Position numbers and translations under genes: made by a program. From the IMG/VR virus record IMGVR_UViG_3300042987_002978, positions 32,001 through 96,000 of that record: a stretch of 64,000 nt of DNA; one strand, written 5' to 3'. Positions 2,817-41,550 of this stretch are shown here, piece by piece. A model generated the notes under the pieces. The model had not been told where the DNA came from. It saw nothing but the letters and a program-made list of their open reading frames with translations, and made no database searches. How positions within the stretch are numbered: position 1 is the stretch's first letter; each line of letters starts with the position of its first letter. Source of the DNA: a virus.

Positions 2817-3080
2817 TTACCATTTTTCTATCGGACAAGAAGCGTTAGAAAGACGCGTTTTTAATGGCATTATGCACCCACACTCGCGACACTGCTGAGT
2901 GGCTTTTATGAACCTGTCACATTCCCTACAAATTGCCAAACGCGATTGAATCACATCTTCAGTTACGCGCAATCCTGGATTAAGAATATGCCATGGCCTA
3001 GCCTTACCATTTGCGCTTTGCGACTCTTTATATTTATCCCAATTGCTTTTAGGCTGATTCTGTGAAGGTTCCATTTGCAT
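2817..3080 (-). CDS. Small Cys-cluster protein (DUF6171-like), copy 1
   Basis: RLAICRECDRF..QCRECGCIMPLKTRLSNASCPIEKW; paralog at 28390-28554. Confidence 0.75.
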   Translation of the reverse strand: MQMEPSQNQPKSNWDKYKESQSANGKARPWHILNPGLRVTEDVIQSRLAICRECDRFIKATQQCRECGCIMPLKTRLSNASCPIEKW

Positions 3081-3486: not shown

Positions 3487-7475
<3,989 letters not shown>

Positions 7476-7476
<1 letters not shown>

Positions 7477-25060: not shown

Positions 25061-25070
25061 ATGCTCAGTC

Positions 25071-25592
25071 TCAGAAATAGTTAAAGTTGATAACAATTCT
25101 GTATTTCGTGTTCGTGTGCGTTGTCCCAGCGTGGCTCATTGTTGCCGGGAATACAACGACTCTATTGGCAACACTTTCTACTTTTGTGCCATCCTCGAAC
25201 AATGTATATCCGTCATTCGTGTTTAAGTAGTAAATGGCAGTCTTCATTGCTGACATGACCTCAGGTTTTCGCAGCATCGTAGGATAAGCAATGTCCGTGT
25301 GCATGTCTGATACTTCTATGGTCGGTGTTGATGGTCTGAAATTTGCTTTTGCCCTGACAAGTACGTCCGACTTCAAATTGCGCAGAAGTGGGGCCAGCAC
25401 AGAGTAGTAGGGGCTCGTCTGACTGTTGTCCCTGTAGAAAATGTGGGTGAATTGAAAATCGTTCAGCGAGCGACTGGGTTTGTCTTTGTAGACTACGCTG
25501 TTGTTGTAATGCCAATTAAATTTCACGTCGGTCAGCGTCGTAAATATAGCCGAGTGTTCTTCCTTTTTGAGGAATTCGTCAATGATTTCCAC
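25071..25592 (-). CDS. 2OG-Fe(II) oxygenase superfamily protein
   Basis: IIDEFL, RAKAN, MHTD, TAIYYLNTNDGYTLF, SVANRVVVF..SHAG...RIVINFNYF; GTG start after TATACT. Confidence 0.85.
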   Translation of the reverse strand: MEIIDEFLKKEEHSAIFTTLTDVKFNWHYNNSVVYKDKPSRSLNDFQFTHIFYRDNSQTSPYYSVLAPLLRNLKSDVLVRAKANFRPSTPTIEVSDMHTDIAYPTMLRKPEVMSAMKTAIYYLNTNDGYTLFEDGTKVESVANRVVVFPATMSHAGTTHTNTKYRIVINFNYF

Positions 25593-25627
25593 GCTGCCAA
25601 GTATAGTAGAATGATACGGAGAAAAAT

Positions 25628-26302
25628 ATGTTGATTCAGCCGTACGCAATCTACGACAATTTCTTGGATGACCCAAGCGCAGTAATCAGGTCTCTTCGCT
25701 CGCAAAGGTATTACGTGCAGGGACTACCGGATACGGGACAAGTGTCGAACAATGACATACCTCTGGAAATCAACTACGGAGACGAAAGCGTCACCGGAGA
25801 CCCGAGGTTTGGTTCGCCCTACTGGAAGGGCTACAGGACCAGGGACCTGCAAGAAATAGACATGGACAGTTACAACATAATCATGAGCAAGTTGCTTGAG
25901 CACATATTCGGCTCGTTCACATTGGCACAGATTGAGTTTGACGCCGAAACACATTTCCACCTCATGACCAAAGACTTTGTTTTTACTGATACGTGGTTCC
26001 ACTCCGACGCCAGCAAATTCATTGCCGGCGTTTTGTACCTGGCAGAAGACCCTGGTCCGAACAGTGGGACGGCGCTGATGATAAACGGTGAAAAAGTCTC
26101 AATAGAAAACAAGTTCAACAGGTTGATTGTCTATAACGCTGGCTTGACGCACAGCGCAGAAGGCTGTTTCGGGGACTCGCTTGAGAACTGCAGGGCTACG
26201 TTTGTATTTTTTATCCGGAATATCTTGCTGTTCAACGACATATTGGAACAGCAGGAACCGACATCAATGGGCAATCAGCACAATTACATAGGCGGATACT
26301 GA
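25628..26302 (+). CDS. 2OG-Fe(II) oxygenase (DUF6445-like)
   Basis: IYDNFLDDP, WKGYRT, WFHSD..AGVLYL..GT, NKFNRLIVY...HSA...R..FVFF. Confidence 0.8.
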   Translation: MLIQPYAIYDNFLDDPSAVIRSLRSQRYYVQGLPDTGQVSNNDIPLEINYGDESVTGDPRFGSPYWKGYRTRDLQEIDMDSYNIIMSKLLEHIFGSFTLAQIEFDAETHFHLMTKDFVFTDTWFHSDASKFIAGVLYLAEDPGPNSGTALMINGEKVSIENKFNRLIVYNAGLTHSAEGCFGDSLENCRATFVFFIRNILLFNDILEQQEPTSMGNQHNYIGGY

Positions 26303-26309
26303 CAGGCCA

Positions 26310-28016
26310 ATGAGAATCGTAGGAATAAGTACCGCGCACGATAGTTCTGTTGCCTCATATTGCGACGGCGAAATTGAGTTCTTCATGAAAGAAGAGCGGA
26401 TTACCAAGCGCAAGAGGGACAAGAACCCATTCGCAGCCATGGTGGAAACGGCCAAATTCTTGGGCAACAAGAAAATCGACGCAGTCGCGGTATCTGCACC
26501 GCACAACACTGATGTCGACAGTTACTTGTTCGCGATAATCGATGCCGCGACAAAGATTTTCAAGACAAACAACATATACAAACTCTTCAACAGCCATCAC
26601 TTGTGCCATGCTTCGTTGGCTTTTTACAACAGTGGATTTGACAATGCTGTCGTGGTAATCGTGGACAGAAACGGCTCGAACAATCCGAATTCAAATATGC
26701 TGCTTTTCGAGTCCGAAACGGTTTTCACCGCGGAATACCCAAGTTCATTCAAGGAAATAAAGAAGAACTACTGGCTTGCGCAGCGCGGGCAAAGTTCTGA
26801 TGCGTTCCTGTTGGAACTCGTTCCCAGAGAGAAAACAAAGAGACCAGGATGTGAAATATCGTACGAGAGTTTGTACGGCATCACCAAGGTCTACGAAACT
26901 GCGACCATTCTCATAGGCGAAGGAATTCTGGAAAACGGCAAGACGATGGGACTTGCTGCATACGGGAACGAAAACCAAGATTTTCCCAATCTGTTTCTTG
27001 ACAACGGCTGTCCCAACGACTCCCTGTTCTCCTATGCGATGAGCAGTCGTGACAATACGCTTGCTGCGATATATAAAGAATACGCAGGCAAGATGACCAA
27101 AACGGTCGACAAAAACGACTATCAGTTTTATGCGGACTATGCGTATCAAGTTCAAAAGCAAACACAAGAACAGGTGGCAAAACTCATTGAGACGGCGGTA
27201 CAGCGAACAGGCATAAAGAACGTTTGCGTCTCTGGTGGTTACGGTTTGAACGTTGTTGCCAACGGCTACTACATATCGAAGTTCCCAGACGTCAATTTCT
27301 TCTTTGAGCCGCTCGCCGATGACACCGGGAACAGCATTGGCGCGGCAATGCTTGTTTATAGAGAATTGTCAAAAGACAAAACCATACGACCGTTGAAGTC
27401 GACTTTCTTCAACGGCCACGAGCCGCATATTTCAGCAGAAGAATTTGACAGGCACCCGATTTCATATGGCAAGGCAACCGTCAACGATGTTGCAAGATTG
27501 TTGGCGGACAACGCAAAACTTGCCATGTTTGCCGGCAAGGCGGAGGGCGGTCCGAGAGCGCTCGGGAACAGGTCGATTTTGTTTTACCCAAATCTTGCCG
27601 ACTCAAAAGACATCGTAAATCGAATTAAGAAACGAGAGTGGTACAGGCCGTTTGCGGCATGTGTCTTGAAAGAAGATGCCTGGGAATACTTTGACATGAT
27701 GTCGCTGACCGAAAGCCCGTACATGACCGTTTCTTTCGACTGCCGCGCCATGACAAAAGAATTGTTTCCGGGGATTGTCCATGTTGACAATTCGTGCAGA
27801 GTGCAGACGGTAGGCGAGGAGAACAAGAACCTACATTCCTTGTTGACGGCAATAAAAGAACTGACTGGTCACGGGTTGTTGTTGAATACAAGTTTCAATT
27901 TGGCCGGCAGCCCGCTGGTTGAAACTATTGACGATGCGATAAAGGTCATGATGGAATCAGAACTTGAATACATCTGGATTCCAGAACACCAGACGCTGCT
28001 AGGCAAGCAGCGATAG
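26310..28016 (+). CDS. Carbamoyltransferase (NodU/CmcH family)
   Basis: GIS.AHDSS, EERITKRK, HHLCHA..AFY.SGF, GKTMGLAAYG, SGGYGLNVVAN, GPRALGNRS, KKREWYRPFA, HVDNSCRVQT, LNTSFNLAG. Confidence 0.95.
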   Translation: MRIVGISTAHDSSVASYCDGEIEFFMKEERITKRKRDKNPFAAMVETAKFLGNKKIDAVAVSAPHNTDVDSYLFAIIDAATKIFKTNNIYKLFNSHHLCHASLAFYNSGFDNAVVVIVDRNGSNNPNSNMLLFESETVFTAEYPSSFKEIKKNYWLAQRGQSSDAFLLELVPREKTKRPGCEISYESLYGITKVYETATILIGEGILENGKTMGLAAYGNENQDFPNLFLDNGCPNDSLFSYAMSSRDNTLAAIYKEYAGKMTKTVDKNDYQFYADYAYQVQKQTQEQVAKLIETAVQRTGIKNVCVSGGYGLNVVANGYYISKFPDVNFFFEPLADDTGNSIGAAMLVYRELSKDKTIRPLKSTFFNGHEPHISAEEFDRHPISYGKATVNDVARLLADNAKLAMFAGKAEGGPRALGNRSILFYPNLADSKDIVNRIKKREWYRPFAACVLKEDAWEYFDMMSLTESPYMTVSFDCRAMTKELFPGIVHVDNSCRVQTVGEENKNLHSLLTAIKELTGHGLLLNTSFNLAGSPLVETIDDAIKVMMESELEYIWIPEHQTLLGKQR

Positions 28017-28914: not shown

Positions 28915-29331
28915 TCAGCCGTTTTCTGTCGCGGCGTACGAGGGTGGATAGTTGCAAGAAGTGGATACCCTTGTGACAACGCTCGTGTTTGTTGGGCATG
29001 AATATGTCGTCGTATAGGTTGGGGAAGCCCCATAACCCCATTCTGGTCTGTGCAGGTTGGCGTTGTCACACGGTCCGCACCAGTTGGTGCAGTTACATCC
29101 ACAACCTTGACCTGCTCCGATGCACCATCCACCGCAATTTGCGCCGCCAGATGGGCAGTAACTGCCGCTTTGCCATGTCCACGCTGTTGCAGAATAATTC
29201 GCCGGGTAGTTGCAAGTCGTTCCGCTCAAAGAAACGATTGCCGTGTTGGTATTGCAGGTATAGAACACGCTCCTGCGGGACAGGCCGAATCTCCTTGCCG
29301 AGCCGCCGCCCAACTTGTTTACGAATGGCAT
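28915..29331 (-). CDS. Cys-rich putative adhesin/tip protein with 'MP..G..S.R.FG' leader
   Basis: 12 Cys in 138 aa; leader shared with Gly-rich proteins 30667 and 31443; internal duplicated C.TNT..V....CNYP..Y.AT. Confidence 0.7.
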   Translation of the reverse strand: MPFVNKLGGGSARRFGLSRRSVFYTCNTNTAIVSLSGTTCNYPANYSATAWTWQSGSYCPSGGANCGGWCIGAGQGCGCNCTNWCGPCDNANLHRPEWGYGASPTYTTTYSCPTNTSVVTRVSTSCNYPPSYAATENG

Positions 29332-29350
29332 AAGTCCCCTTGTTTAAATA

Positions 29351-30214
29351 TTAGGCGAATCGTGTCTGCGCGGCGAACACGGTGAATGTGGCAGCACCAG
29401 TCTTTACTGCGGTCATGGTGTACATATCCACCGAGTTGGCGTTTCCAGATGTCGGTGCGCCAGTAGAACCCTGCCATTCTGTCGTCACACCAGACGTCGT
29501 TCCGTTGATTTGAATCGATGTCGCGTAGTAGGGAGTCGCGCCGTTGGTGACCATGAACGACGTGGTGGCCATTTCGCCAGTGGCGAGTTTGCTGTCCAAC
29601 GTCGTGGAAGAATTCCAGCGCAGGTTGATGACAAAGTTGGCGGCCGCGTTCGACGTGTAGTAGGTGGTTCCGTTTGCGACATCAACCGCAATCGTTCCCG
29701 TTGCCGCAGTCGCAGAAATTGTGATTGGCTCGATGACCGATGTGGTCTTGACGCTGGAGAAGGTAACTTCACTTGTCGTGCCTACGGCCTGACCAATGGC
29801 AATTGACGCAGAAGAGCCTTCGCCAGGAGTATGAGTGACAGTAACGCCCGTGCCGGCAACTACGTCAGCGACATAGTTTCCGGTTGTGTCGGTACCGAGA
29901 GCGACCGAATTGGCGGCAATCGAGGCGACACCGCCGCTTGTGATTGTCAGGTCTCCGCTTACCTTGCCAAACACGTACGTCGGGATTCTGCTTGCGTCCA
30001 TTTTTCTATTGGCAGAAGCGCTAACGTCGTAAATTGGGATGTCGTCAGCGTCAACTATGTCGGCGTTGATGTCTACTGCGTTTGTAATGTCGATTCCGGC
30101 AAGGGCTGGGATGCCACTGAGCAGTCGCCAGGTGGTGCCGTCCCATTTCCAGGTTCGCTCATCGGCCACATACGTGTCATTTACCGATGGAGAGTTTGGG
30201 AAATCGATTGCCAT
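29351..30214 (-). CDS. Fibre branch/adaptor protein (FPxSP N-terminus, ...QTRFA C-terminus)
   Basis: Paralog of 32312-33277; contains the LGTDTTGNY..GTGVTVTHTPGEGSS repeat of the long fibre. Confidence 0.75.
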   Translation of the reverse strand: MAIDFPNSPSVNDTYVADERTWKWDGTTWRLLSGIPALAGIDITNAVDINADIVDADDIPIYDVSASANRKMDASRIPTYVFGKVSGDLTITSGGVASIAANSVALGTDTTGNYVADVVAGTGVTVTHTPGEGSSASIAIGQAVGTTSEVTFSSVKTTSVIEPITISATAATGTIAVDVANGTTYYTSNAAANFVINLRWNSSTTLDSKLATGEMATTSFMVTNGATPYYATSIQINGTTSGVTTEWQGSTGAPTSGNANSVDMYTMTAVKTGAATFTVFAAQTRFA

Positions 30215-30306
30215 TGTTCGCCTCCAAGTGGTCCCTGTAATTATGACATATCGACGGGGGGACTAGTTAGAAGGGAAAATCGCCCCTTGGTAATAAGGCG
30301 CAAAAA

Positions 30307-30657
30307 TCAGCCAGCGGAGACGGCGACCCATGAGGTCGTATCCTCATCCCAGCGGTATGTTTCCCCGTCGGTTGGATACGGCACCGGTGCCTGCCATCGA
30401 CAGGTTGACTCGTCAAGAATCCATGAAGCAAAACGCTTAGGGATTATGAATGCGTCTCTTTCCTGGTCATACACGCCACCGATAATTGCGTAGTTTTTCC
30501 TGAAAGAACCATTTTCGCAAGTTTCTTTCCAGGTTCCGGTCAGACCAAGAGAAGCGATAAACTGAAGGCCAATTTCTTCAGTTGGGGCATCTTCATCTGA
30601 TACAAGAATGACATTGGTTACAAAATTATTTTCGTCAAGCGAAGCGTAGTATTTCAT
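30307..30657 (-). CDS. Small fibre-associated protein (putative adhesin chaperone), paralog 2
   Basis: FRKNYAIIGGVYDQERDAFIIPK..SWILDE..C.W.APV; paralog of 33281-33649. Confidence 0.75.
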   Translation of the reverse strand: MKYYASLDENNFVTNVILVSDEDAPTEEIGLQFIASLGLTGTWKETCENGSFRKNYAIIGGVYDQERDAFIIPKRFASWILDESTCRWQAPVPYPTDGETYRWDEDTTSWVAVSAG

Positions 30658-30666
30658 GTCGTAATC

Positions 30667-31440
30667 CTACGGACGGAACCTTACGTAGACGATTCCAGAG
30701 CCGCCACTTTCGCCTCCGCTGCGCACTGCGCCGCCACCTGCCGACCAACGAGTTCCACCACCACCGCCACCAGAGTAACTTCCATTGCCAGGACCAGCAC
30801 CGTTAGAACCGCCCGCACCGTTTCCACCGTTTCTTCCAGAGGTGCCGTTACCGCCACCCATGCCGCCTTGCCCCAGCATCGGACCACCACCACCGCCGCC
30901 AGCACCACGATAAGTATGACCAGCCGGCTGACCGATGAAAGCCGAAATGTCGGTTCCGTTACCGCCATTTTGTCCTTGACCTCCACCGTTCGGGGAGCCA
31001 CCACCGTCGTTACCGCCGCCACCGCCGCCGCCAGTTGAGTTGGTTTGTGAACCAAATGTCGTAGTGCCACCATTGCCGCCGTTGCTACTAAGTGCGCCGC
31101 CACCGCCACCACCACCAATTGTGATGCTTTGATTTGATGTAAGAGTCAGAAGCAAACTTTGACGAACCTGTCCGCCACCGCCACCGCCGCCGCCGGCATC
31201 GCTACCTTCGTTGCAGCCACCTCCTCCTCCACCGCCGCCACACCATAAGACATCAAACTGCCCCGAGCGAGTGACGGTCAGGGTACCAGAACTGGTGAAT
31301 GTCAATAAAGTATATGTCTGTCCGTCGACAGTTATGGATGAGGAACTACCACCAGTGGCAGCGCCGTAAGGGTTGGGCACTGAGCGAAGAGAGCCAAACC
31401 CTCTTCCCGAAGAAGAACCGAATGTTCCAATAATAGGCAT
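30667..31440 (-). CDS. Glycine-rich (polyglycine II-type) adhesin-like protein, leader class A
   Basis: ATGG...YTLLTFTSSGT, repeated GGGGGG blocks, GGSGIVYVRF end. Confidence 0.8.
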   Translation of the reverse strand: MPIIGTFGSSSGRGFGSLRSVPNPYGAATGGSSSSITVDGQTYTLLTFTSSGTLTVTRSGQFDVLWCGGGGGGGGCNEGSDAGGGGGGGGQVRQSLLLTLTSNQSITIGGGGGGGALSSNGGNGGTTTFGSQTNSTGGGGGGGNDGGGSPNGGGQGQNGGNGTDISAFIGQPAGHTYRGAGGGGGGPMLGQGGMGGGNGTSGRNGGNGAGGSNGAGPGNGSYSGGGGGGTRWSAGGGAVRSGGESGGSGIVYVRFRP

Positions 31441-31442
31441 AG

Positions 31443-32303
31443 TTACACCACCACCAAAGAGCCGCTGCCAGTAAACGTGTGAATTGTGTACGAGCCAGAA
31501 GTAGTTTTCGAGCCGCCAGTAATTGTGTAGGCACTTGCGCTTGAGGTCAAGTAGCGAACAATTACGATTCCGGAGCCGCCGCTTAAACCGCCGCCGCCGC
31601 CACCTCCACCGCCGCCAGTGTTTGCCGCTCCTACAGTTGCTCCGTTGCCAGCATCGTAATATCCACCGTTTCCACCACCACCCGCACCACCTGCTTGACT
31701 ACTCGGGTCTTGACTGGCTCCACCACCACCACCGGCACGAGTTACAGAAGAGCCTGTTATGGAAGATGCCCTACCAGAGCCACCTCCACTTGTTCCTCCA
31801 CCTGCAGCGGCACCACCTCCACCACCGGCTGCATCCGCACCGTTTCCGTTTCCACCACCATAACCTTGACTTGCAGTGCCGCCAAATCCGCCAGTTGCGC
31901 CTGAAGATGCACCGCCACCGCCGGAACCACCAGTACCACCGCCACCGCCGTTTCTACGACCGCCACCGCCACCCGTAGAAGTTATCGTATGAAAAACGGA
32001 GTTGGAACCGTTACCTCCTTCTGCACCACCTCCACCACCGACGGTGACCGTGTAAGTGCCGGCACCGAGAGAAAGAGCCGCTTCTGCGGCTGCGCCACCG
32101 CCCGAAGTTTCGCCGGAGACTGACGACCTATAACCACCTCCGCCACCTCCGCCGCCGTAAGCACCTATTCCTGTGTCGTTTCGGTTTCCACCGCCGCCAC
32201 CGGCAACGACAAGATATTCAACGCTGAACAGCGGTCTTGCAAAGACTCGTAATCCACCGAACCCTCTTGTTGAGGAAGAACAGAACGTTCCTGAAAGCGG
32301 CAT
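31443..32303 (-). CDS. Glycine-rich adhesin-like protein, leader class A
   Basis: VEYLVVAGGGG, GGYRSSV, SSITGSSVTRAGGGGG, GSGIVIVRY, YTIHTFTGSG. Confidence 0.8.
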   Translation of the reverse strand: MPLSGTFCSSSTRGFGGLRVFARPLFSVEYLVVAGGGGGNRNDTGIGAYGGGGGGGGYRSSVSGETSGGGAAAEAALSLGAGTYTVTVGGGGGAEGGNGSNSVFHTITSTGGGGGRRNGGGGGTGGSGGGGASSGATGGFGGTASQGYGGGNGNGADAAGGGGGAAAGGGTSGGGSGRASSITGSSVTRAGGGGGASQDPSSQAGGAGGGGNGGYYDAGNGATVGAANTGGGGGGGGGGLSGGSGIVIVRYLTSSASAYTITGGSKTTSGSYTIHTFTGSGSLVVV

Positions 32304-32311
32304 AGTTATTC

Positions 32312-33277
32312 CTATGCGAACTTGGTCTGAGTCTCTAGCACCTGGTATGTCGGGGTTGCTGCGGTCTTGACAATCGTGAACGAGTAAACGTCAATCGACG
32401 AAGCGTTGCCTGCAGAAATTGCGGATGGAACCTTCGGAGTAACTGCCGACCCGTCAATCTGGATGACGTTCGGATAGTACGGAGTCGCTCCGTTCTGATT
32501 CATCCACACGACGGTTATCACGTCGCCTACCGCCAGTTTTGACGAAAGGGTCGTGCTTGAGTTGTAACGGAAGTTCAGCGTGTGGTTCGCCGTCGCGTTC
32601 GATGTGTAGAACCAAATCGACGATGTTGCAATGTCAATGTTGATGGTTCCAGTAGCGGCCGCGGCAACGACGTTTGCGCGCTCCTGAAGGCCCTGAACGA
32701 TGAGTTCTTTCGTCAGGTTTGTGTGAGCACCGTTGATTGTCGGGCTCGTCAAGGTCTTGTTCGTCAGCGTGTCACTTGAGGATGTCGTAACGACGTTTAC
32801 TCCCTCAATAGTGACGACTCCTGCCGCACTGCGGGCAAGCGTGGTGTCGTTGGCGTGGCCAAGTTCAATCGAGCCGACACCGAGAGGCGAGGTCGTTGAA
32901 GTGCCCAATTTTGAGATAGCGATGGCCGCTGCCGCATTGACATCAGCATCGACAATCACGCCTGAAGCAATTGAAGTAACTCCGGAGGAATCAATGGTTA
33001 CATCGCCAGATTCTGTAACAGAGGTGGGGACCCCAGAGGCGTTGTAAACGATGATATTCCCAGCAGTGCTAGTAGCGAGTTTGGACAGTGCAATCGCTGC
33101 GGCTGCATTGATGTCCGCATTGACGATTGAGCCGTCGGCCAGTTCAGTCGAGCCGACCGAACCGGCACCGAGAGCACCGGTAACGATTTTCCACGAAGTG
33201 CCGTTCCACTGCCACGTGCGAGCGCCGTCAGTGTACGTCTGGTTGACAGAAGGACTTGATGGAAATGTTAACGGCAT
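32312..33277 (-). CDS. Fibre branch/adaptor protein (FPxSP N-terminus, ...QTKFA C-terminus)
   Basis: MPLTFPSSPSVNQTY..RTWQWNGTSW; IVNADINAAAAIA.SKL repeats; TLTNKTLTSP; AATGTINID...YTSNA..IDVYSFTIVKT. Confidence 0.75.
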   Translation of the reverse strand: MPLTFPSSPSVNQTYTDGARTWQWNGTSWKIVTGALGAGSVGSTELADGSIVNADINAAAAIALSKLATSTAGNIIVYNASGVPTSVTESGDVTIDSSGVTSIASGVIVDADVNAAAAIAISKLGTSTTSPLGVGSIELGHANDTTLARSAAGVVTIEGVNVVTTSSSDTLTNKTLTSPTINGAHTNLTKELIVQGLQERANVVAAAATGTINIDIATSSIWFYTSNATANHTLNFRYNSSTTLSSKLAVGDVITVVWMNQNGATPYYPNVIQIDGSAVTPKVPSAISAGNASSIDVYSFTIVKTAATPTYQVLETQTKFA

Positions 33278-33280
33278 AAA

Positions 33281-33649
33281 TTACTCTCCTTGGGGTACGA
33301 CTTCATCCCATTGAAGTTCTTCTTCGTTCCAGACCCAGAATCCTGTCTCTGGACGCGCAACCGGGGCTTCCCAGTCGCATGTTGTCTCGTTGAGAACCCA
33401 AGACGGGTACGGCTTCGGTGCGATGAATGCATCGCGCTCGGCATCATACGCATAGCCGATTCCGGCATAACGCTTGCGGAAGTTGTTGTTGTACGAGGTT
33501 TGCTTCCAAGTGCCGCCGAGAAGATTCGTGCAGAAAGCCACACCGATTTCCTCACTGGCCGGAAAGTCTCCACCACCGCAATCGTTGTTGGATACGACGA
33601 TTACCTGCGTCACGATGTTGTCCGAGTCAATTTGGGCAAAATGTGCCAT
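33281..33649 (-). CDS. Small fibre-associated protein (putative adhesin chaperone), paralog 1
   Basis: MAHFAQID..VTQVIVV...WKQTSYN..FRKRYAGIGY.YD..RDAFIAPKPYPSW; own TATAAT and AGGAG. Confidence 0.75.
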   Translation of the reverse strand: MAHFAQIDSDNIVTQVIVVSNNDCGGGDFPASEEIGVAFCTNLLGGTWKQTSYNNNFRKRYAGIGYAYDAERDAFIAPKPYPSWVLNETTCDWEAPVARPETGFWVWNEEELQWDEVVPQGE

Positions 33650-33696
33650 GTTCTTGCTCTCCTATAGTGGTTGGCTCACATTATAGGCCATGGGCA

Positions 33697-34689
33697 TCAA
33701 AGAGTGATTGAACCCGAAGCGGTAAAAGTGTAGATATGGTAGCCGCCTGCGCCGCCATTGTACGTTGGCGAACCAGTGGTTGATGTTGCCGCCCCGTATG
33801 CAGATGTAGGCCATCGAACAATGACAACACCAGAACCACCCTGCCCACCGCTGCGCCATACCGCATCGTTGTTGAATAGTCCGCCACCACCGCCACCACC
33901 CGTGTTGCCGGTTCCTGCAGAGCCGTTGGCAGTGTGCGCTGCGCCGTTTCCGCCTCCGCCGTTTCCGCCTGCTCCGCCAGAACTGGCGGGTTGTTTTCCG
34001 GCGCATCCTCCACCGCCTCCACCGCGCACAACTGCGGACCCAGTGATTGAGGACGAGACGCCTGCGCCACCGGCACCACCAACACCGTTGATTGTGTTCG
34101 CAGCGTTACCGCCGACTGCGCCAGCGCCTCCACCACCACCGGCGGGATAGTCCTGCAATGCCGATGAACTTCCACCTGCATATCCTTGCCCTGTTGTGCC
34201 AGTTCCTGCACTGCCGCCTTCACCACCGCGACCACCACCGGAGCCACCGTTGCCTGCACTCACCGCTCCAGAACCACCACCGCCGCCGCCAGTTGCGGTT
34301 ATCGTGGACAATACAGAGTTATTACCGTCGGTTCCTTTTACGTTTGCGTTTCCTCCGTAGGCACCACCTCCGCCTACCGTAACGGTGTGAGAAGTTGCGA
34401 CGGCAAGAGCAAGTGTCGATTCTGCAGATGCTCCGCCTCCAGAGTTTTCTCCAGAAACTGAAGAACGATATCCGCCGGCACCACCGCCGCCGCCTTGTTC
34501 AAGTGCGCCTCCTCCGCCTCCACCGCCAGCGATGACCAGGTATTCAACCAGAACTGGTGTCATCGGCCAGTTCGATGCACCTTTTTCTTGTTGATGGCTT
34601 GCCAAACTCCACATACCCGACGCGACAGATGTAGAGATTGTCTGCTTGGGACCGAGCCGCCCACCTTTTCTTTGTTTTTTGTTTGGCAT
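33697..34689 (-). CDS. Glycine-rich adhesin-like protein, leader class B
   Basis: GGRLGP...SGMWSL...QQ...NWP leader; VEYLVIAGGG; YHIYTFTASGSITL. Confidence 0.8.
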   Translation of the reverse strand: MPNKKQRKGGRLGPKQTISTSVASGMWSLASHQQEKGASNWPMTPVLVEYLVIAGGGGGGGALEQGGGGGAGGYRSSVSGENSGGGASAESTLALAVATSHTVTVGGGGAYGGNANVKGTDGNNSVLSTITATGGGGGGSGAVSAGNGGSGGGRGGEGGSAGTGTTGQGYAGGSSSALQDYPAGGGGGAGAVGGNAANTINGVGGAGGAGVSSSITGSAVVRGGGGGGCAGKQPASSGGAGGNGGGGNGAAHTANGSAGTGNTGGGGGGGLFNNDAVWRSGGQGGSGVVIVRWPTSAYGAATSTTGSPTYNGGAGGYHIYTFTASGSITL

Positions 34690-34697
34690 AGTTACCC

Positions 34698-35684
34698 CTA
34701 GAAAGTTATGCTTCCAGAACCGGTGAACGTGTAAATGTGATATCCGCCCGTGCTCGAATATGACGGTGAGCCTGTCGTTGATGCTGCTTGTAGATACGCG
34801 GTTGACCAGCGAATAATCACAATTCCAGAACCACCCGCTCCACCGGGACCATCGGCTCCTCCGTCAACCATTCCGCCACCGCCGCCACCAGAGCCAGTGC
34901 TGGCCGCGCCTGCAGTAGCAGAGTTTCCATTGTTTACTGACCCACCTCTGCCGCCAATTCCAGAACCCCCGCAACCACCACCTCCGGGATTTCCGCAAGG
35001 ACTGGTCACATGGGACCCGTAGCCAGCACCACCACCACCGCCGCCTGCACGAGTTACAGATGAACCTGTAATACTGTTACTTAAACCAGCGCCGCCGGAA
35101 CCACCGTTGTAGTAGTCATTTGATGGGCTAGTTTGACCAGCGCCTCCAGCACCACCACCACCCCTACCCACGTTTTGGCTGTCTGCGCCTTCACCACCGT
35201 CATAACCCTGTGCATTGGTTCCGGTTCCTTTTGAAGCACTACTACTTGCGCCACCACCAGCGCCGCCGCTTGCTCCGTTGCCGTTATATGAGCCGCCAGC
35301 GCCTCCACCAGTAGAGGTGATGCTTCCAAAAACTGAGTTGTTGCCGTTCGTTTGCGAACCACCGCCGCCGCCGACCGTTACGGTGTAAGTAGTGCCGGCA
35401 GACACGGAAAGTGGTGATTCTGCCGCTGAACCTCGCCCAGATGTGGCACCGCTGACTGATGTGCGATAACCACCAGCGCCACCGCCACCACCGCCGCGGC
35501 CGCCGCGTCCTCCACCTGCACCTCCGGCAATTACCAAATATTCAACGGTGGGCGGAGGATACAGTGTTACCGGCCAGTTCGACGTTCCTTTTTCTTGTTG
35601 CTGACTCGTCAAATTCCATACGCCGCTTGCAGCGCTAGTACTTACCGATGAGCGCGGTCCGATTCTTCCGGCGTTTAAGGACAT
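34698..35684 (-). CDS. Glycine-rich adhesin-like protein, leader class B
   Basis: AGRIGP...SGVWNL..QQQ...NWP leader; same scaffold as its neighbours. Confidence 0.8.
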   Translation of the reverse strand: MSLNAGRIGPRSSVSTSAASGVWNLTSQQQEKGTSNWPVTLYPPPTVEYLVIAGGAGGGRGGRGGGGGGAGGYRTSVSGATSGRGSAAESPLSVSAGTTYTVTVGGGGGSQTNGNNSVFGSITSTGGGAGGSYNGNGASGGAGGGASSSASKGTGTNAQGYDGGEGADSQNVGRGGGGAGGAGQTSPSNDYYNGGSGGAGLSNSITGSSVTRAGGGGGGAGYGSHVTSPCGNPGGGGCGGSGIGGRGGSVNNGNSATAGAASTGSGGGGGGMVDGGADGPGGAGGSGIVIIRWSTAYLQAASTTGSPSYSSTGGYHIYTFTGSGSITF

Positions 35685-35687
35685 ATA

Positions 35688-36641
35688 TCAAAGAGTAATC
35701 GAGCCGGAGCCGTTGAATGTGTAAACGTGATATCCGCCGACGCCGCTGTTGTATGAGGGGGAACCTGTCGTAGATGTGGCAGCATTGCTGCTTGTTGACC
35801 ATCTAAGAATCACCACACCAGAACCGCCAGCACCTGAAGTACCGGCACGTGTTCCACCACCACCGCCGCCAGTGTTTGCCGCTCCAGACTCGCCGTTTGC
35901 AGAAGAACCGTTTGCGCTAGCGCCACCACCGCCGGCACCGCCCGCACCAGAGGTCACATTTGCGTTACCACCACCGCCACCACCGGCGCGAGTCACAGAA
36001 GAACCAGTGATTGACGATGCCCTTCCATTCCCACCCCTACCGGCATTATTCACCATCACTTGACCCGCTTCTCCGGCACCCCCACCGCCCGAACCGCCGT
36101 TACCTCCGCTTGCGCCACCATCAAAACCCTGACCTGCCGTACCTACGCCGTTGGTGCCAGATTCTCCACCTTTGCCGCCACCACATCCACCGTCTCCGCC
36201 ATTGATTCCGTGTCCACCTCCGCCACCCCCACCGAGTGAAGTTACAGTAGTCATTCCCGTTGCGGAAATCGCGCTGTTATTTCCAGCGCCGCCTCTTTGC
36301 TGACCACTGACAACGGCGCTACCGCCGCTGCCAACAGTAACGGTCATCACCGTTCCCCTGGCAAGGGTTACGGTAGATTCGGCTGTTGAGTTTCTTCCGC
36401 TTAATTCGCCGATGACAGAACTCCTGTATCCGCCAGCGCCACCGCCACCGCCACCGGATGCGCCGTCAGCAGAACCACCACCTGCTCCGCCAGCAATTAC
36501 CAAATATTCAATAGTTAATGATTGAACTGGCCAGTTATTTTGACCCTGATTTTGTTGCTGGGTATAAAGGTCCCAGAAGCCAGAAGCGCCAGACGTAGAG
36601 ACCGTTTGTAACGGGCCGATGCGTCCACCGCGCCGGCGCAT
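35688..36641 (-). CDS. Glycine-rich adhesin-like protein, leader class B
   Basis: GGRIGP...SGFWDL..QQQ...NWP leader; same scaffold. Confidence 0.8.
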   Translation of the reverse strand: MRRRGGRIGPLQTVSTSGASGFWDLYTQQQNQGQNNWPVQSLTIEYLVIAGGAGGGSADGASGGGGGGAGGYRSSVIGELSGRNSTAESTVTLARGTVMTVTVGSGGSAVVSGQQRGGAGNNSAISATGMTTVTSLGGGGGGGHGINGGDGGCGGGKGGESGTNGVGTAGQGFDGGASGGNGGSGGGGAGEAGQVMVNNAGRGGNGRASSITGSSVTRAGGGGGGNANVTSGAGGAGGGGASANGSSANGESGAANTGGGGGGTRAGTSGAGGSGVVILRWSTSSNAATSTTGSPSYNSGVGGYHVYTFNGSGSITL

Positions 36642-36994
36642 TAACTAATCTCTTCGTAAGAGCAGACCGCCTCAAGGTCAGAGTTCGCGTTTGCAGTAAG
36701 ACGCAGGGCATCACCTTCTTCTAGGTAAATTGCCTTGGAGATGATGTCGAGCGTCGCGTCGGCAGGAACCGAGACGGTGTTCGCGATTCGATAGGCAGTC
36801 GAGGAGCGGAACAAGTCGACGTTGATGTCCGCCGCGTTGGTGCCGTCCACGTTCGATACGTACAAGGCGTTGATTTTGAACACCTTGCCACTGGCGGCCG
36901 AGTTCGTGACGATTGCCGTCGCGCTCGTGGTGACGGCCATGACTGCCGTCTTGCCGGTGATTGTTGCTACGTTGACGATGTTCGGTGCTGCCAT
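36641..36994 (-). CDS. Small beta-rich fibre-tip adaptor
   Basis: MAAPNIVNV..ITGKT...NVDGT...IANTVSVPADATL...YLEEGD...SYEEIS; sits between the long fibre and class B adhesins. Confidence 0.7.
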   Translation of the reverse strand: MAAPNIVNVATITGKTAVMAVTTSATAIVTNSAASGKVFKINALYVSNVDGTNAADINVDLFRSSTAYRIANTVSVPADATLDIISKAIYLEEGDALRLTANANSDLEAVCSYEEIS

Positions 36995-37003
36995 AATCTC
37001 TCC

Positions 37004-40000
37004 TTACGAACCGAAGACAATGGCCATTGCGATGGCCTTGCCAGTCGATGCATATGTTGGTGTTTGCCATTCTAGACCAGTTGCCGTCGCAGAGTTGGCA
37101 ACCAGGAGTTGGCCGTTAGTGCCAACCCCGAGACGAGTGACCGTGTCTGCCGCAGTAGCGGCCAACAGGTCACCTTTGGTCGTGACAATGTCGGTTGTCG
37201 GGTCGATGCCCCACTTCAAGCCAGTGGCAGTCGAGGAATCCGCGATGAGAACGTATCCGTTCGTACCGACCGTCAGGTTGTCGATGGTGTCGTTGGCAGT
37301 ACCGACGAGCAAGTCGCCCTTGTTGTCAATGGCGCTCAGGAGCGTGTCGACCGCCGATGCGCCGATTTCCACCCAGTTTGAGGCGTAGTACACGTAAGTA
37401 GCACCGTCATCAGAGTCAAACCATGTGTCGCCTTCCAGCGGTGACGCAGGCGGGTTGGAACTGATTGCCAAGCGCGACGCACCGGAGATTGCGCCGACTT
37501 CAACCCATGCCGAGTCGTAGTAGACGTAGGTACGGCCGGTGTCTGACTCGAACCAGAATTGTCCGTTCAACGGGCTGGCTGGGGCAGTGTCGGAAATCGT
37601 CGCGCCGCCAGAACCGAAGTCTGTGTATGTCGTCCCGTCGTTCGTGAACTGCCACTTGTCGGTGGTCTCGTTCCAACGGATTGCAACCGTGCTGGACGAG
37701 CCACGAAGGACCTCGAAACCGGCGTCGTCGCTCGGAGCGCCAGTGGTGACATCGCTGTTCAGGGTGACGATATTGTCCTGGATGTTCAGGGTTCCGACAA
37801 CCGTTAGGTTGTCGTCGACCGTGACGGTTCCGCCAGCGGAGTCAATCGTCAGGTTGCCTGACGTTGTGTCGATTTCGCCTGATGCGCTGACGCCGATTCG
37901 AACCGCGTCAGCAGTGACTCCGGCGAATGACGGACTATCTGACGTCCCGACGGCTTGACCAATCGAAACGGAAGCAGTCGAGCCTTCGCCTGCCGTGTGG
38001 CTGATAGTGACACCGGTACCAGCGACGACATCTGCCATGTAGTTGCCGACCGTGTCGGTCCCAAGGTTGATTGGGTCGTTGACCCAGGCGGAGCCATTCC
38101 ACTTCAGGAAGTCACCAGCAGACGCAGAGGTGATGTTTACATCACCGATATCGTCCAGCGCCGCGATACTTTGGGCATCGACGTAGGCAGTCGAGGCGAT
38201 GTCGACGTAGTTAGTTCCGTTCTCCGTGTATTCCCACTTGTCCGAAGTTTCGTTCCATCGCAACGAGACGTTGGCCGACGAGCCACGCTCAATTTCGATT
38301 CCTGCGTTCTGGCTCGGAGAACCGGTCTCGTTGCTGTTCAGGACGATGAGGTTGTCGGCGAGATTGATTGTCTCAGTGTTGACTGTCGTCGTCGTCCCGT
38401 TGACGGTCAGGTCTCCACCTATTGTTACGTTTCCAGTCGTAGTTACCTGAGCAAACTGAACCGAAGCAGAAGTTGCCACGTCTTGACCGATTGAAATTGA
38501 AGCACTCGAACCTTCGCTAGGAGTATGGACAATTGTGACGCCAGTTCCCTGAGCAAGGTCTGCCATGTAGTTGCCGGTCGTATCGGTGCCAAGAGCGACT
38601 GAATTGGCCTGAACTTGAGCAGTGATTGTTACATCGGTGGAGCCATCAAAAGAAGCCGAGCCAGACAAATCTCCACCCAATGAAATCGTGCGTGCGGTGT
38701 GCAAAGTCGTCGCCGTGTCGGCATGGAGGTTTGCAACTTCTGTAGTTGATGCGACAACGAATGGCGCACTGCCAGTAGCAATCGTGCTCTCGAAAGTCTC
38801 TGCGACTACAGGAGCAGGTGAGTATGTGCCATGGTCTGTGTCAATGGGACTTGACGGCTCAGGTGTGTACGAATCAAAGAACTTGAACTTGCCGTCCGTC
38901 GAATCACGGAAGTAACCAGCGTGCTTGTGTGAACCGTCGTAATAACTAGAGACGACACCAGTGTCAAGACCTGCCGCGCTGGCTGTCGTGTTTAGATAGA
39001 TGAAAGGATTGTCAATTTCAAGGCTGACTTGGTTCTCCGTGACAACCGAGCCGCTGACGTAGAGGTTGCGCCCGACGATTACGTCATATTGAGTCTCCAA
39101 CTGATGGAACTCGACCGATGCCGACGTTCCAACGTCCTGACCGATGGCGATACTCGCCGAAGAACCTTCACCAGGAGTGTGGCTGACGGTTACGCCAGTG
39201 CCAGCAACAACGTCATTGACATAGTTGCCGACTGTGTCTGTTCCAAGATTTATTTGGTCATTGACCCAAACGGCAGAGGCGCTGTCGTACTTGAGGAAGT
39301 CGCCATTCGTGAGGCCAGAGACCTTGACGTCGTGGAGTTCTTCAAGTTCATAGCCATTCTGCGTGGCAACGTAAATGATGCCGTTGTTGGTCGCGCGAAC
39401 GACCACGCCGACGAAAACGAGGTGGTCGGGCGATGATGGCTTTGTCGTTGTGACTTGGCCGTTTGTGCCGAGCCACAAAATGTCTCCGGCGTTGTAGGCC
39501 GAAAGGTCCATGCCGTTTGCATAACCGCGCGTGATGACAGAGCCATTTTGTCCTGCGGCAATTGATGCCGTTACGACACCGACAGTCTTTGACGATGTGG
39601 TGTCAGAAGTGTTGTCAGCGCGCTTTACGGAAGCATGGTCTCCGGTGCCACCAAACAGGTAGACGACAGTTCCTGCAGTAAGTGTTGTGGCTTCGGCGTT
39701 GCGGACGTACGAAACGACTGGCGCGTACGAGTTGACCCAGCCTGCGCCGTCGTAGCCGAGAGTCTGGAATCGCTCTGGGGTGCCGACGATGACAACATCG
39801 CCAAGTTCGTTCAACCCGGCATTGAGGGCGACAGATGCGCTCGAACCTTCGCCTGGCGTGTGGGTGATGCTGATACCGGTTCCGGCAACGACGTCCGACA
39901 TGTAGTTTCCGGTCGTGTCCGTTCCGAGGGCGACCGAGTTCGGTTCGACTTGCGCGGTAATAGTGATGTTCTGCGAACCGTCGAACGATGCCGAACCTGA

Positions 40001-41098
40001 CAGGTCACCTGCAAGGGAGATGGCTCGTGCTGTTTCCAGCGAAGAAGCCGTAGTGGCATTTCCGCTCAGTGGAGCCGTGACATGCGCGAAAGTTACGGAC
40101 GACGAAGTCTCGACGTCCTGTCCGACAGCGATGTTCTTATACGTAGTTCCGTCTTCGGTTATTTCCCACGAGTCAGTCGTTTCGTTCCAAAGGAGCGAGA
40201 CGTTAGTTGAACTTCCACGCTCAATCTCGATTCCGGCAGTACCAGAAGGCACTCCGGTTACATTGGCATTGAGAACTATGGTGTTGTCTTCGACAAGCAG
40301 GTCTTGAGTGTTTAGGGTTGTTGTCGTTCCATTTACTGTCAAATCACCAGAAATCGTCACTTGCGCAAATGTGACAGAAGCAGAAGTTGCCACGTCTTGA
40401 CCGATTGCGATTGAGGCCGACGAACCCTCGCCAGGAGTATGACTGACAGTTACGCCAGTGCCTGCAACGACATCGTTGACATAGTTACCTGTCGTATCTG
40501 TGCCAAGCGCGACAGAGTTTGGTTCTACCGATGCGGTGATTGTGACGTTGCTTGACCCGTCAAACGATGCAGAACCGCTCAGGTCTCCACCAAGCGAAAT
40601 CGTTCTTGCGGTCTCAAGCGTCGTGGCCGTATCTGCATTGCCAGTCAAGTCTCCGGTCACATTGGCAGAAACATGCGCAAAAGTTACAGATGCAGATGTA
40701 GCGACGGACTGTCCGATTGAGACAGTCGGAGTCGCTGCTTCACCAGAGTTTCCGGCGAGCGTGACGCCGGTTCCGGCGACAAGTGACTCGACGTAGTTGC
40801 CGACTGTGTCAGTAGAAAGATTTACGGCATCGTTAATCCAGGCAGATGCTGAACTGTCATAGCGCAAAAAGTCGCCACCTGCGACACTGCTTATTGTTAC
40901 GTCAGCAAGGTCGTTTATAGAACTCAGCGAAAGCGGGACGTGTGTGTACGAAAGGGAGTTCCATGCAGTGGTCCCGTCGCCTACCTTGAATTTCCTGGTG
41001 TCGGTTTCATAGCCAATTTCTCCAGCAAAAAGAACCGGGTTATTGGACACCCATGATGCAGCAGTACCGCGCTTGACTTGAATCCTTGCTCCGGCCAT
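37004..41098 (-). CDS. Long fibre protein with Mtd_N-like N-terminus and internal repeats
   Basis: IQVKRGTAASW..NPVL..GEIGYETDT.KFKVGDG..WNSL; six L[GS]TDT.GNY repeats; three A.TISL.GDLSGSASFDGS repeats; ends GKAIAMAIVFGS. Confidence 0.85.
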   Translation of the reverse strand: MAGARIQVKRGTAASWVSNNPVLFAGEIGYETDTRKFKVGDGTTAWNSLSYTHVPLSLSSINDLADVTISSVAGGDFLRYDSSASAWINDAVNLSTDTVGNYVESLVAGTGVTLAGNSGEAATPTVSIGQSVATSASVTFAHVSANVTGDLTGNADTATTLETARTISLGGDLSGSASFDGSSNVTITASVEPNSVALGTDTTGNYVNDVVAGTGVTVSHTPGEGSSASIAIGQDVATSASVTFAQVTISGDLTVNGTTTTLNTQDLLVEDNTIVLNANVTGVPSGTAGIEIERGSSTNVSLLWNETTDSWEITEDGTTYKNIAVGQDVETSSSVTFAHVTAPLSGNATTASSLETARAISLAGDLSGSASFDGSQNITITAQVEPNSVALGTDTTGNYMSDVVAGTGISITHTPGEGSSASVALNAGLNELGDVVIVGTPERFQTLGYDGAGWVNSYAPVVSYVRNAEATTLTAGTVVYLFGGTGDHASVKRADNTSDTTSSKTVGVVTASIAAGQNGSVITRGYANGMDLSAYNAGDILWLGTNGQVTTTKPSSPDHLVFVGVVVRATNNGIIYVATQNGYELEELHDVKVSGLTNGDFLKYDSASAVWVNDQINLGTDTVGNYVNDVVAGTGVTVSHTPGEGSSASIAIGQDVGTSASVEFHQLETQYDVIVGRNLYVSGSVVTENQVSLEIDNPFIYLNTTASAAGLDTGVVSSYYDGSHKHAGYFRDSTDGKFKFFDSYTPEPSSPIDTDHGTYSPAPVVAETFESTIATGSAPFVVASTTEVANLHADTATTLHTARTISLGGDLSGSASFDGSTDVTITAQVQANSVALGTDTTGNYMADLAQGTGVTIVHTPSEGSSASISIGQDVATSASVQFAQVTTTGNVTIGGDLTVNGTTTTVNTETINLADNLIVLNSNETGSPSQNAGIEIERGSSANVSLRWNETSDKWEYTENGTNYVDIASTAYVDAQSIAALDDIGDVNITSASAGDFLKWNGSAWVNDPINLGTDTVGNYMADVVAGTGVTISHTAGEGSTASVSIGQAVGTSDSPSFAGVTADAVRIGVSASGEIDTTSGNLTIDSAGGTVTVDDNLTVVGTLNIQDNIVTLNSDVTTGAPSDDAGFEVLRGSSSTVAIRWNETTDKWQFTNDGTTYTDFGSGGATISDTAPASPLNGQFWFESDTGRTYVYYDSAWVEVGAISGASRLAISSNPPASPLEGDTWFDSDDGATYVYYASNWVEIGASAVDTLLSAIDNKGDLLVGTANDTIDNLTVGTNGYVLIADSSTATGLKWGIDPTTDIVTTKGDLLAATAADTVTRLGVGTNGQLLVANSATATGLEWQTPTYASTGKAIAMAIVFGS

Positions 41099-41550
41099 TA
41101 CACTGCACCTCCATCAAAACCAATCACGACGTAGTTAGTCACTTCTGCTTCATATATTTCCGGTGAAACAATACCACCATCGACATCTCCAGATAACAAA
41201 CCCCCGCCGGATACTTCTGTCCACGAAGAACTTGAGCGGAAGTAAAATTTGTCGTTGGTCGTGTCGATTGCGAGAGCACCGTCCGGAAGCGCAGAGGTTG
41301 GAGCCCCGTTGGTCGTAAGAGTGACCAAGCCGAGTGCGGACTGGAACACGTCATCCGTATAGAGGGTGTTTGCAGAAATCCTGTAGAGGTTGGTATCGCC
41401 CGTTGCCGCACCGCTGGACCATGTGAGTCGTCCGCCGGCATCGATTCGAATACGTGGGTGGCTGTCCTCGTTTACCCGTGTGGAGATAGCCTCATCACTG
41501 GGGCTACTGAACTCAATCCCACGTAGGGGAGTGCCTACAAATCTCGTCAT
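41098..41550 (-). CDS. Fibre connector protein ending in DGG motifs
   Basis: DTNLYR, GALAIDTTNDKFYFR, GDVDGG...FDGGAV; coupled to the long fibre gene. Confidence 0.65.
   Translation of the reverse strand: MTRFVGTPLRGIEFSSPSDEAISTRVNEDSHPRIRIDAGGRLTWSSGAATGDTNLYRISANTLYTDDVFQSALGLVTLTTNGAPTSALPDGALAIDTTNDKFYFRSSSSWTEVSGGGLLSGDVDGGIVSPEIYEAEVTNYVVIGFDGGAV

Follow-up and report, generated by a model that had tools for sequence, protein, structure and literature searches.

N-terminal leaders follow stalk ends rather than adhesin bodies in a tail-fibre module that probably joins separately encoded stalks to snap-on tips

Three consecutive tail-fibre cassettes in the IMG/VR virus record IMGVR_UViG_3300042987_002978 raise the question of how a phage that encodes six candidate adhesin tips would direct each of them to one of three stalk ends. 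We analysed positions 32,001 to 96,000 of this linear record (104,851 bases, CheckV completeness 75%), a stretch of 64,000 nucleotides (nt) hereafter called the window, and found that the short N-terminal leader of a tip follows the stalk end, or socket, encoded upstream rather than the body to which it is attached. We regard it as probable that the module as a whole is built from stalks with separately encoded snap-on tips.

In the first cassette, a long fibre ending in GKAIAMAIVFGS is followed by a 117-amino-acid (aa) jellyroll protein, three glycine-rich (Gly-rich) tips (G1, G2, and G3), and one helper (Table 1). Alignment of the three tips revealed the common leader GR[IL]GP...S[TS]S.ASG.W.L..QQ..G..NWP, here called class 1. 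The second cassette starts with adaptor A1, a short fibre with an FP.SP..W.W.G..W N-terminus and a C-terminal all-beta domain of 132 aa ending in ETQTKFA, and continues with the Gly-rich tips G4 and G5, whose starts fit MP..GTF.SSS.RGFG (class 2), and a further helper. The third cassette is built on adaptor A2, whose C-terminal domain is a paralogue of the A1 domain (50% identity), and contains one cysteine-rich (Cys-rich) tip, C6, together with a different set of small downstream genes. The gene order and motifs of all three cassettes had been described in a first-pass annotation made from the sequence alone, and all of them were located where it had placed them, with every detail correct. 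It had also assigned the second and third cassettes to the same leader class; they do share one broad class, but the leaders belong to different sub-classes, MP[IL][IL]G.. and MPF[VL]N.., each of which follows its own adaptor sub-family in other phages.

The relationship between leader and socket was tested over approximately 270 fetched loci with four entry points: the A1 C-terminal domain (80 of 249 matching IMG/VR loci taken), the A2 C-terminal domain (21 matching loci, all taken), the class-1 leader (30 loci), and the helper family phrog_7759 (80 loci), the last of these being a sample not biased toward either leader–socket pairing. For the pooled counts, both socket proteins were recognised by hidden Markov models, and class-2 leaders were counted with a tightened pattern; a looser form that required only MP and two hydrophobic residues picked up other proteins as well, FP.SP adaptors among them. 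After the adaptor C-terminal domain (106 pairs), 98 leaders were of class 2, none was of class 1, and 8 were unclassified, and after the 117-aa protein (44 pairs), 41 were of class 1, none was of class 2, and 3 were unclassified. There was thus no cross-pairing among the 139 classified pairs, and the 11 unclassified leaders were judged by eye to be variants or mis-called starts. Fisher's test on the association gave 3e-36, with loci that are not independent of one another; when only unique leaders were counted, class 2 followed the adaptor in 70 of 76 cases and class 1 followed the 117-aa protein in 27 of 30. Among 1590 other open reading frames of at least 100 aa in the fetched loci, the class-2 pattern occurred in 9 and the class-1 pattern in 20. 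The pattern is far beyond chance, and the earlier statement that leader class tracks the preceding adaptor was borne out. The opposite outcome named in the first-pass annotation, leader classes occurring at random after either adaptor type, was checked, and the distribution is not random.

The individual entry points showed the same pattern. In the A1-domain loci, the next gene starts with M(S)P[IL][IL]..[LF]A.[GAS]S[AS].G[YF][GR] in 79 of 80, and the bodies behind this start are Gly-rich (approximately 300 aa, or 575–808 aa), non-Gly-rich (approximately 190 aa), or approximately 343 aa long. The single exception is locus L044, in which, from position 4493 onward, a normal ETQTKFA adaptor and a gap of 96 nt precede a leaderless tip of the approximately 190-aa body type; this tip may be decayed or mis-assembled. 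In all 21 A2-domain loci, the next gene starts with MP[FL][IL].., and homologues of C6 stand behind an A2-type adaptor in three loci (L114, L200, and L091). The class-1-leader loci listed with upstream DNA have a fibre of 86 to 1171 aa ending in [ST]TGK[AS]IAM[AS]IVFG[G], behind which come the 117-aa protein (or its 225-aa variant), one or more tips, and finally a helper starting with MAHFA or MAHYA. Among the loci fetched with the helper, a class-1-like leader followed the 117-aa protein in 10 of 10 cases and a class-2 leader followed the adaptor domain in 3 of 3. The pairing is also kept in distant cultured phages, namely Prochlorococcus phage P-SSM7, Roseobacter phage CRP-738, a freshwater podovirus, Pelagibacter phage HTVC033P, and phage DSL-LC04. 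The genes concerned are gp041 and gp042 in P-SSM7, gp31 and gp30 in CRP-738, and gp62–gp66 in HTVC033P.

Within class 2, finer pairs of stalk end and leader were observed: ..AS.TQ[YF]A with MPL[IL].TR.AAS.RGFG, ..SSNLGY with MPFISS.SARQSGLLFANAAKL (MPFISS.SARQSGLLF), and ..TRFA (..AQTRFA) with MPF[VL]N... The MPFISS and MPF[VL]N leaders each head Gly-rich as well as Cys-rich bodies. The proposal that the phage has six interchangeable tips on three sockets is not supported in that form: leader sub-classes follow adaptor sub-families, and tips are therefore probably interchangeable only within a socket type.

To separate the influence of the socket from that of the body, we compared leader identity with each across 71 adaptor–tip pairs. 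Leader identity correlated with adaptor identity at r = 0.68 (a value reached by 0 of 2000 permutations in a Mantel test) and with body type at r = 0.29. Where similar adaptors are followed by different bodies, 53% of leader residues are common, whereas 42% are common where the same body type follows dissimilar adaptors. When the bodies were clustered, seven or more unrelated clusters had tips with the class-2 leader, several Gly-rich clusters and one non-Gly body had the class-1 leader, and tips of both socket types came together in two Gly-rich clusters. The window itself provides an example, as the body of G4 is 54% identical to that of G1 and yet has a leader of the other class. The adaptor domain is the extreme C-terminus in 118 of 118 adaptor proteins, the leader is N-terminal, and none of these 118 proteins combines adaptor domain, leader, and body in one chain. 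Three loci (L087, L097, and L098) encode a stalk with the same FP.SP N-terminus that continues directly into a Gly-rich body, which places such bodies at fibre ends; these fusion proteins have neither socket domain nor leader. The leader follows the socket rather than the body.

Linkage by itself could also produce such statistics. The leader would then be the structural beginning of the tip (a strand for trimerisation, for instance) and would remain next to the adaptor gene because recombination breakpoints were located in the first, conserved strand of the body. The short distance between leader and adaptor end, 10–25 nt, is in keeping with this, as is the conservation of that first strand (VEYLV[IV]AGGGG), a possible crossover site. 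However, the same leaders also head non-Gly bodies that lack the VEYLV[IV]AGGGG strand, and a strand for trimerisation would be expected to vary with the body rather than with the upstream gene. Furthermore, synonymous sites in the leader are saturated: four-fold degenerate sites of its codons are near random (0.34), which indicates that the peptide, not the DNA, is conserved. We consider linkage without contact quite unlikely.

The two kinds of socket differ in fold. The C-terminal 132 residues of A1 were predicted by AlphaFold2 (AF2) as an all-beta domain with a predicted local distance difference test score (pLDDT) of 92.7. Its best fold matches, all of them parts of phage fibres, spikes, or baseplates or else the StcE and CpaA domains, comprised the C-terminus of the Pa223 capsid spike (Z 7.2), a baseplate protein of Klebsiella phage KP1 (Z 6.2), an Acinetobacter phage tailspike (Z 5.4), residues 52–181 of CBA120 TSP4 (Z 5.3–5.4), StcE and CpaA (Z about 5), and residues 25–151 of one chain of the T4 baseplate structure 5iv5 (Z 4.6). 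All of these Z values are below 8, and the matches therefore serve as a lead only. By residue range and co-hits, the matched part of TSP4 is most likely XD1, whose listed relatives are T4 gp9, T4 gp10, StcE, and CpaA (PMC8825819); XD2 and XD3 are the known docking modules, and XD1 is a spacer of unclear role (PMC8825819). A search of the adaptor-domain profile against PDB by sequence gave no match.

These folds bear on a second alternative, in which the leaders address an assembly factor or a common site elsewhere on the tail (the baseplate or the long fibre, for instance) and the short adaptors are independent fibres. The adaptor domain resembles XD1- and StcE-type domains, and the StcE and CpaA domains are listed among the binding domains of this fold (PMC8825819), so the adaptor domain could itself be a receptor-binding head. 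Against this stand the co-variation of leader sub-class with the upstream adaptor sub-family and the fact that all 118 adaptors end in the domain and are always followed by a leader-bearing gene. In addition, the pairing spans a T4-like cyanomyovirus, records deposited as podoviruses, and the present phage with its siphovirus-like tail-gene order; one common baseplate site is unlikely for phages with such different tails. This alternative as a whole appears unlikely to us.

For the 117-aa protein, the AF2 model (pLDDT 84) is a nine-strand jellyroll in which residues 1–11 are disordered, yet M1, A3–V7, and V9 are invariant across homologues (MAAPNIVNV in the window). Only generic jellyrolls were found for this fold, with template modelling (TM) scores of 0.6 or less: the metagenomic phage 'pentameric capsid protein' 4dmi, Ena pilus subunits, TNF/C1q, and needle knobs. 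Homologues are 69–91% identical to it overall, with 83–91% for the 117-aa forms except that of L097 and 69–75% for the 225-aa forms. Conservation this high beside highly variable tips would suit a junction piece whose two interfaces are both fixed, and the protein is an invariant member of the first socket, not a bystander. The 225-aa forms (L084, 3318–3992; L087, 3324–3998; L090; L091; and L098) carry an insertion of approximately 108 aa with GHPFWIQ ... YY[VA]CQ.H[SA][AT]M.G, whose His and Cys-x2-His-x2-Met pattern resembles a type-1 copper (cupredoxin-like) site.

The long fibre contains five repeats of a GTDTTGNY...GEGSSASI module and two internal P.SP..G..W...Y.Y...W motifs. The latter were considered as complementary docks for the FP.SP adaptors and rejected, being the same module rather than complements and occurring also inside fused fibres. 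Nothing was found on the attachment of the FP.SP N-termini of A1 and A2, and the idea of a branched fibre in the first-pass annotation found no support. A gene of 150 aa at 41098–41550 (MTRFVGTPLRGIEF...RIRIDAGGRLTWSS) shares one base with the start of the long fibre; in L089 and L098, its sequence forms the N-terminus of a fibre ending in TGKAIAMAIVFGG, so the long fibre of the window is either two split genes or somehow read through. A complex prediction with three copies each of the A1 C-terminal 132 residues and G4 residues 1–60, based on alignments made for this analysis, returned 'no answer' with a score of 0.00; the fold of the partner was itself uncertain, and the result counts neither for nor against binding.

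The bodies of the tips were examined with Pfam, in which four of the five Gly-rich tips exceeded the 24.3-bit cut-off of Gly_rich_2 (PF21722): G1 with 64.4 bits, G2 with 43.6, G3 with 51.9, and G5 with 39.8. G4 scored 21.8 bits, just under the cut-off, and at E up to 0.1 nothing beyond Gly_rich_2 was found for G1–G5, the T-even gp38 adhesin family included. In a phmmer search of PDB, the sole match of G3 was 7yfw_a, the Pam3 fibre, and this match is weak (E = 0.97 over 170 residues) and has high compositional bias. In G5, and also in L005, L015, and L050, the strand ..Y.[LI].[TF]F..SG.. stands right after the leader instead of at the C-terminus, and these tips are circularly permuted forms of the Gly-rich and probably TNF-like body.

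A third alternative places the Gly-rich and Cys-rich proteins outside the virion altogether, for example as secreted or intracellular effectors that share an operon with fibre genes. None of them has a curated functional name and no proteomic evidence was found, which would be compatible with such a role. The Gly_rich_2 matches and the weak match to the solved Pam3 fibre head argue against it, as do the fusion of the Gly-rich body to fibre stalks in other phages and the alignment of the Gly-rich part at 560–891 of phrog_2295, a long profile of 1183 positions. We rate this alternative as very improbable.

The small genes behind the tips vary with the type of body, as the first-pass annotation had proposed when it stated that helper class tracks body type. 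In most of the 80 helper-fetched loci, the gene directly upstream of the phrog_7759 helper is a Gly-rich tip, whereas the Cys-rich tips in L114, L131, and L133 are followed by homologues of the 104-aa or VVDG-type proteins of the window, and a DUF6171 homologue lies within the L200 locus, which has a Cys-rich tip. DUF6171 and VVDG paralogues are encoded at 2817–3080 and 3049–3453 of the window, behind a 1329-aa tail protein (3487–7476) that has a Cys-rich C-terminus with 16 Cys from residue 1101 onward, so that 2817–3453 together with 3487–7476 constitutes a second Cys-rich body and helper set. A chaperone role for the helpers is presumed from their position and from the precedent of Pam3 gp24 and gp25. 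No Pfam or NCBIfam family was found for the helpers, a profile built from 47 helpers had no PDB match up to E = 10, no sequence relation of the family to Pam3 gp25 or Tfa was detected, and a protein atlas returned unnamed viral clusters only. In some loci, a gene for a 2-oxoglutarate and Fe(II)-dependent (2OG-Fe(II)) oxygenase (PF13759/PF13640) stands between a Gly-rich tip and the helper (L227, 5014–5616; L195, 1855–2487; L123, 4862–5485; and phage DSL-LC04, L274, 5324–5944), and in the window the DNA immediately downstream of the module (24473–28016) encodes oxygenases with weak scores and a carbamoyltransferase. This recurring oxygenase link hints at post-translational modification of tips.

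The arrangement that we favour is a tail-fibre module of separately encoded stalks and snap-on tips. Two types of socket would be involved: the hydrophobic fibre tail ...TGKAIAMAIVFG with the conserved 117-aa jellyroll protein, and the 132-aa all-beta C-terminal domain ending in ..QT[KR]FA on headless short fibres. The leader, of approximately 40 residues for the former and approximately 20 for the latter (20–45 overall), most likely serves to attach the tip, by non-covalent contacts, to the stalk end encoded just upstream, the free N-terminal leader of the tip engaging the free C-terminus of the stalk, in class 1 through the 117-aa protein. Host binding would then be the task of the tip body, which is probably of the TNF-like plus glycine-rich kind known from Pam3 gp24 and S16 gp38 in five tips and a Cys-rich knob in one, and the small downstream genes would provide body-specific folding helpers (phrog_7759 for Gly-rich bodies; the DUF6171, VVDG, and 104-aa proteins for Cys-rich bodies). 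Since the leader and not the body would carry the address, recombination could put any body on any stalk. With three, two, and one tips, the phage would probably produce mixed fibre populations and have a wider or hedged host range. Reading the leaders as docking peptides is the most economical interpretation, strongly implied by the sequences, and it fits both the co-variation and the body swapping. The sequences directly show the gene order, the families, the association of leader with socket together with its co-variation, and the swapping of bodies; physical docking and its stoichiometry, the chaperone role, and the effect on host range are what we infer.

Several points weigh against this arrangement. 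The leader is only 10–25 nt from the adaptor stop codon, and tight linkage with breakpoints after the leader would give the same statistics without any contact. A single tip per socket is nearly always the rule in related loci (70 of 83 and 24 of 36 cases), and none of them has three; the layout of three, two, and one tips is therefore an unusual expansion, in which three or two tips would have to share one socket. The nearest solved folds of the A1 domain are XD1-type TSP4, StcE, CpaA, and a capsid-spike end (Z 5–7), not the docking modules XD2 and XD3. Virion proteomics for the module proteins was looked for, and none was found.

A broader proposal is more tentative, and we hold it at somewhat less than even confidence. 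It states that one orthogonal plug-and-socket code with several classes is common to aquatic phages of all three tail types, two of its classes being characterised here and at least three or four further pairings being present in the helper-fetched loci; that bodies move between stalks and lineages by keeping the 20–45-residue leader; and that the tips in the window compete per socket, giving single or sibling virions with mixed adhesins.

Other combinations of fibre end and tip start were seen in the helper-fetched loci (L193–L272). In one, a fibre ending in ..DDQVVLSSQIF[SN] is accompanied by a 120-aa protein starting with MATF[ST]K..LSGST and tips starting with M..R.RSGTSVSGWT. In another, fibres ending in ..ISG[SAG]GLT or ..VSGNV[ST] occur with tips starting with MSGALQAVFQN, MAIQQMFLG, or MTIMQMLLF, and coiled-coil-ended fibres occur with tips starting with MTL.SSG.IS...I..E[FY]GG. 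A further leader type has tips starting with MG[IL]RS.NN. Example loci are L198, L246, L208; L214, L215, L220, L226, L251; L230, L232, L254, L260; and L236, L239.

Several genomic features point to a siphovirus-like phage. The portal, protease, and major capsid genes lie at 46–55 kb of the window, and we read a run of genes for proteins of 1644, 290, and 1329 aa at 3.5–13.3 kb as tape measure, distal tail, and tip proteins. The closest portals from cultured phages are those of actinobacterial phages. From 43 kb to 28 kb, all genes are on the minus strand, and the features of the module are listed in the order of its cassettes in Table 1. Neither a megablast search with the 15-kb region nor a tblastn search with a Gly-rich tip matched the phage collection, the low-complexity filter being the probable cause in the latter case. 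NCBIfam contained no family for ten module proteins, and the three PHROGs families phrog_7759, phrog_5906, and phrog_1276 are all annotated as function unknown.

Table 1. Features of the tail-fibre module, with positions in the window
Feature	Position	Strand	Description
Long fibre, socket 1 part 1	37004..41098	-	1364 aa; Mtd_N-type N-terminus; C-terminal tail STGKAIAMAIVFGS
117-aa jellyroll protein, socket 1 part 2	36641..36994	-	phrog_1276
Tip G1	35688..36641	-	Class-1 leader (residues 1 to ~40) plus glycine-rich and probably TNF-like body; Gly_rich_2 2.1e-17
Tip G2	34698..35684	-	Class-1 leader plus Gly-rich body
Tip G3	33697..34689	-	Class-1 leader plus Gly-rich body; weak match to Pam3 fibre 7yfw
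Helper H1 (MAHFA...)	33281..33649	-	phrog_7759; presumed chaperone for Gly-rich bodies
Adaptor A1, short fibre, socket 2	32312..33277	-	321 aa; phrog_5906 C-terminus
Tip G4	31443..32303	-	Class-2 leader MPLSGTFCSSSTRGFG plus Gly-rich body, 54% identical to G1
Tip G5	30667..31440	-	Class-2 leader MPIIGTFGSSSGRGFG plus Gly-rich body, permuted strand order
Helper H2 (MKYYA...)	30307..30657	-	phrog_7759; H1 paralogue, 50% identical
Adaptor A2, short fibre, socket 3	29351..30214	-	287 aa; FP.SP N-terminus; phrog_5906 C-terminus ending AAQTRFA
Tip C6	28915..29331	-	Starts MPFVNKLGGGSARRFG; MPF[VL]N sub-class of class-2 leader; 138-aa Cys-rich body, 8.7% Cys
104-aa small protein after C6	28551..28865	-	Presumed helper for Cys-rich bodies
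DUF6171 mini-protein after C6	28390..28554	-	Six Cys; Pfam DUF6171 2e-8; presumed helper for Cys-rich bodies
113-aa 'VVDG' protein after C6	28026..28367	-	Presumed helper for Cys-rich bodies

How uncultured marine and freshwater phages recognise their hosts can for the most part not be read from sequence. Provided that leaders serve as addresses and bodies as cargo, metagenomic fibre operons could be parsed into stalk, socket, tip, and helper, and the tips, as the true determinants of host range, could be catalogued apart from their carriers. Keeping the leader while swapping the body is a simple rule that is testable in cultured relatives infecting Pelagibacter, Roseobacter, and picocyanobacteria. 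The pairing is repeated in more than 140 gene pairs of other aquatic phages and thus looks like a widely shared snap-on way of exchanging host specificity. It would also carry the docking-peptide principle, which experiments have demonstrated only for phages of enterobacteria, over to glycine-rich adhesins and to phages of a very different kind.

Among documented principles, the closest is the combination of docking peptide and branching domain in Klebsiella podophages. In KP32, K11, and KP34, RBP1 has a branching domain and RBP2 a conserved N-terminal docking peptide (PMC6872550, PMC13352976), and the docking of the second receptor-binding protein (RBP) by this peptide was shown experimentally by engineering (PMC13352976). 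As in these phages, a short conserved N-terminal peptide here precedes a variable, exchangeable binding body, with the class-2 leader found on at least seven unrelated clusters, and the gene for the carrier, with its dedicated domain, is adjacent. However, the carrier domain here stands at the very C-terminus of a headless stalk, giving a serial order rather than a side branch; it has no sequence match to the Klebsiella domain, and its fold matches are XD1-type rather than the T4gp10-like XD2/XD3 branching domain. Moreover, the present genome has at least two orthogonal leader–socket classes, its bodies are glycine-rich or Cys-rich adhesins rather than depolymerases, and docking is a conclusion that we infer. 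The XD domains of CBA120 TSP1–4 and T4 gp10 are beta-sandwich modules of a fibre or spike protein that serve as platforms for other trimeric proteins (PMC8825819), although the part of TSP4 matched here is most likely XD1, not XD2 or XD3, and the Z values are middling.

For the adhesins, the closest analogues are S16 gp38 on gp37 and Pam3 gp24. In T2, T6, and S16, the gp37 trimer at the fibre tip is capped by the gp38 adhesin with its polyglycine-rich domain (Dunne et al. 2018, as cited in PMC7289586 and PMC9608196). This system likewise has a separate glycine-rich adhesin attached to the distal fibre end via its N-terminal part and encoded directly after the fibre gene, but that part is a folded N-terminal domain, whereas attachment here would be through a 20–45-residue leader, and the body here would include a TNF-like domain as in Pam3. 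Pam3 gp24 combines a docking helix at its N-terminus with a TNF-like domain and a receptor-binding domain rich in glycine, and the chaperone encoded downstream, gp25, folds it (PMC9608196). Its TNF-like and glycine-rich head (7yfw) and its small downstream folding gene would correspond to the tips and presumed helpers of the window; gp24, however, docks to the baseplate by its own N-terminal helix, whereas the leader here is matched to a separate stalk. In the literature searched, coverage of which was incomplete, no description of a leader–socket grammar in aquatic phages or for glycine-rich tips was found. Compared with these systems, the features that differ in the present module are the terminal socket on a headless stalk, the two orthogonal classes per genome, the apparently different folds of the sockets, and the glycine-rich and Cys-rich cargo.

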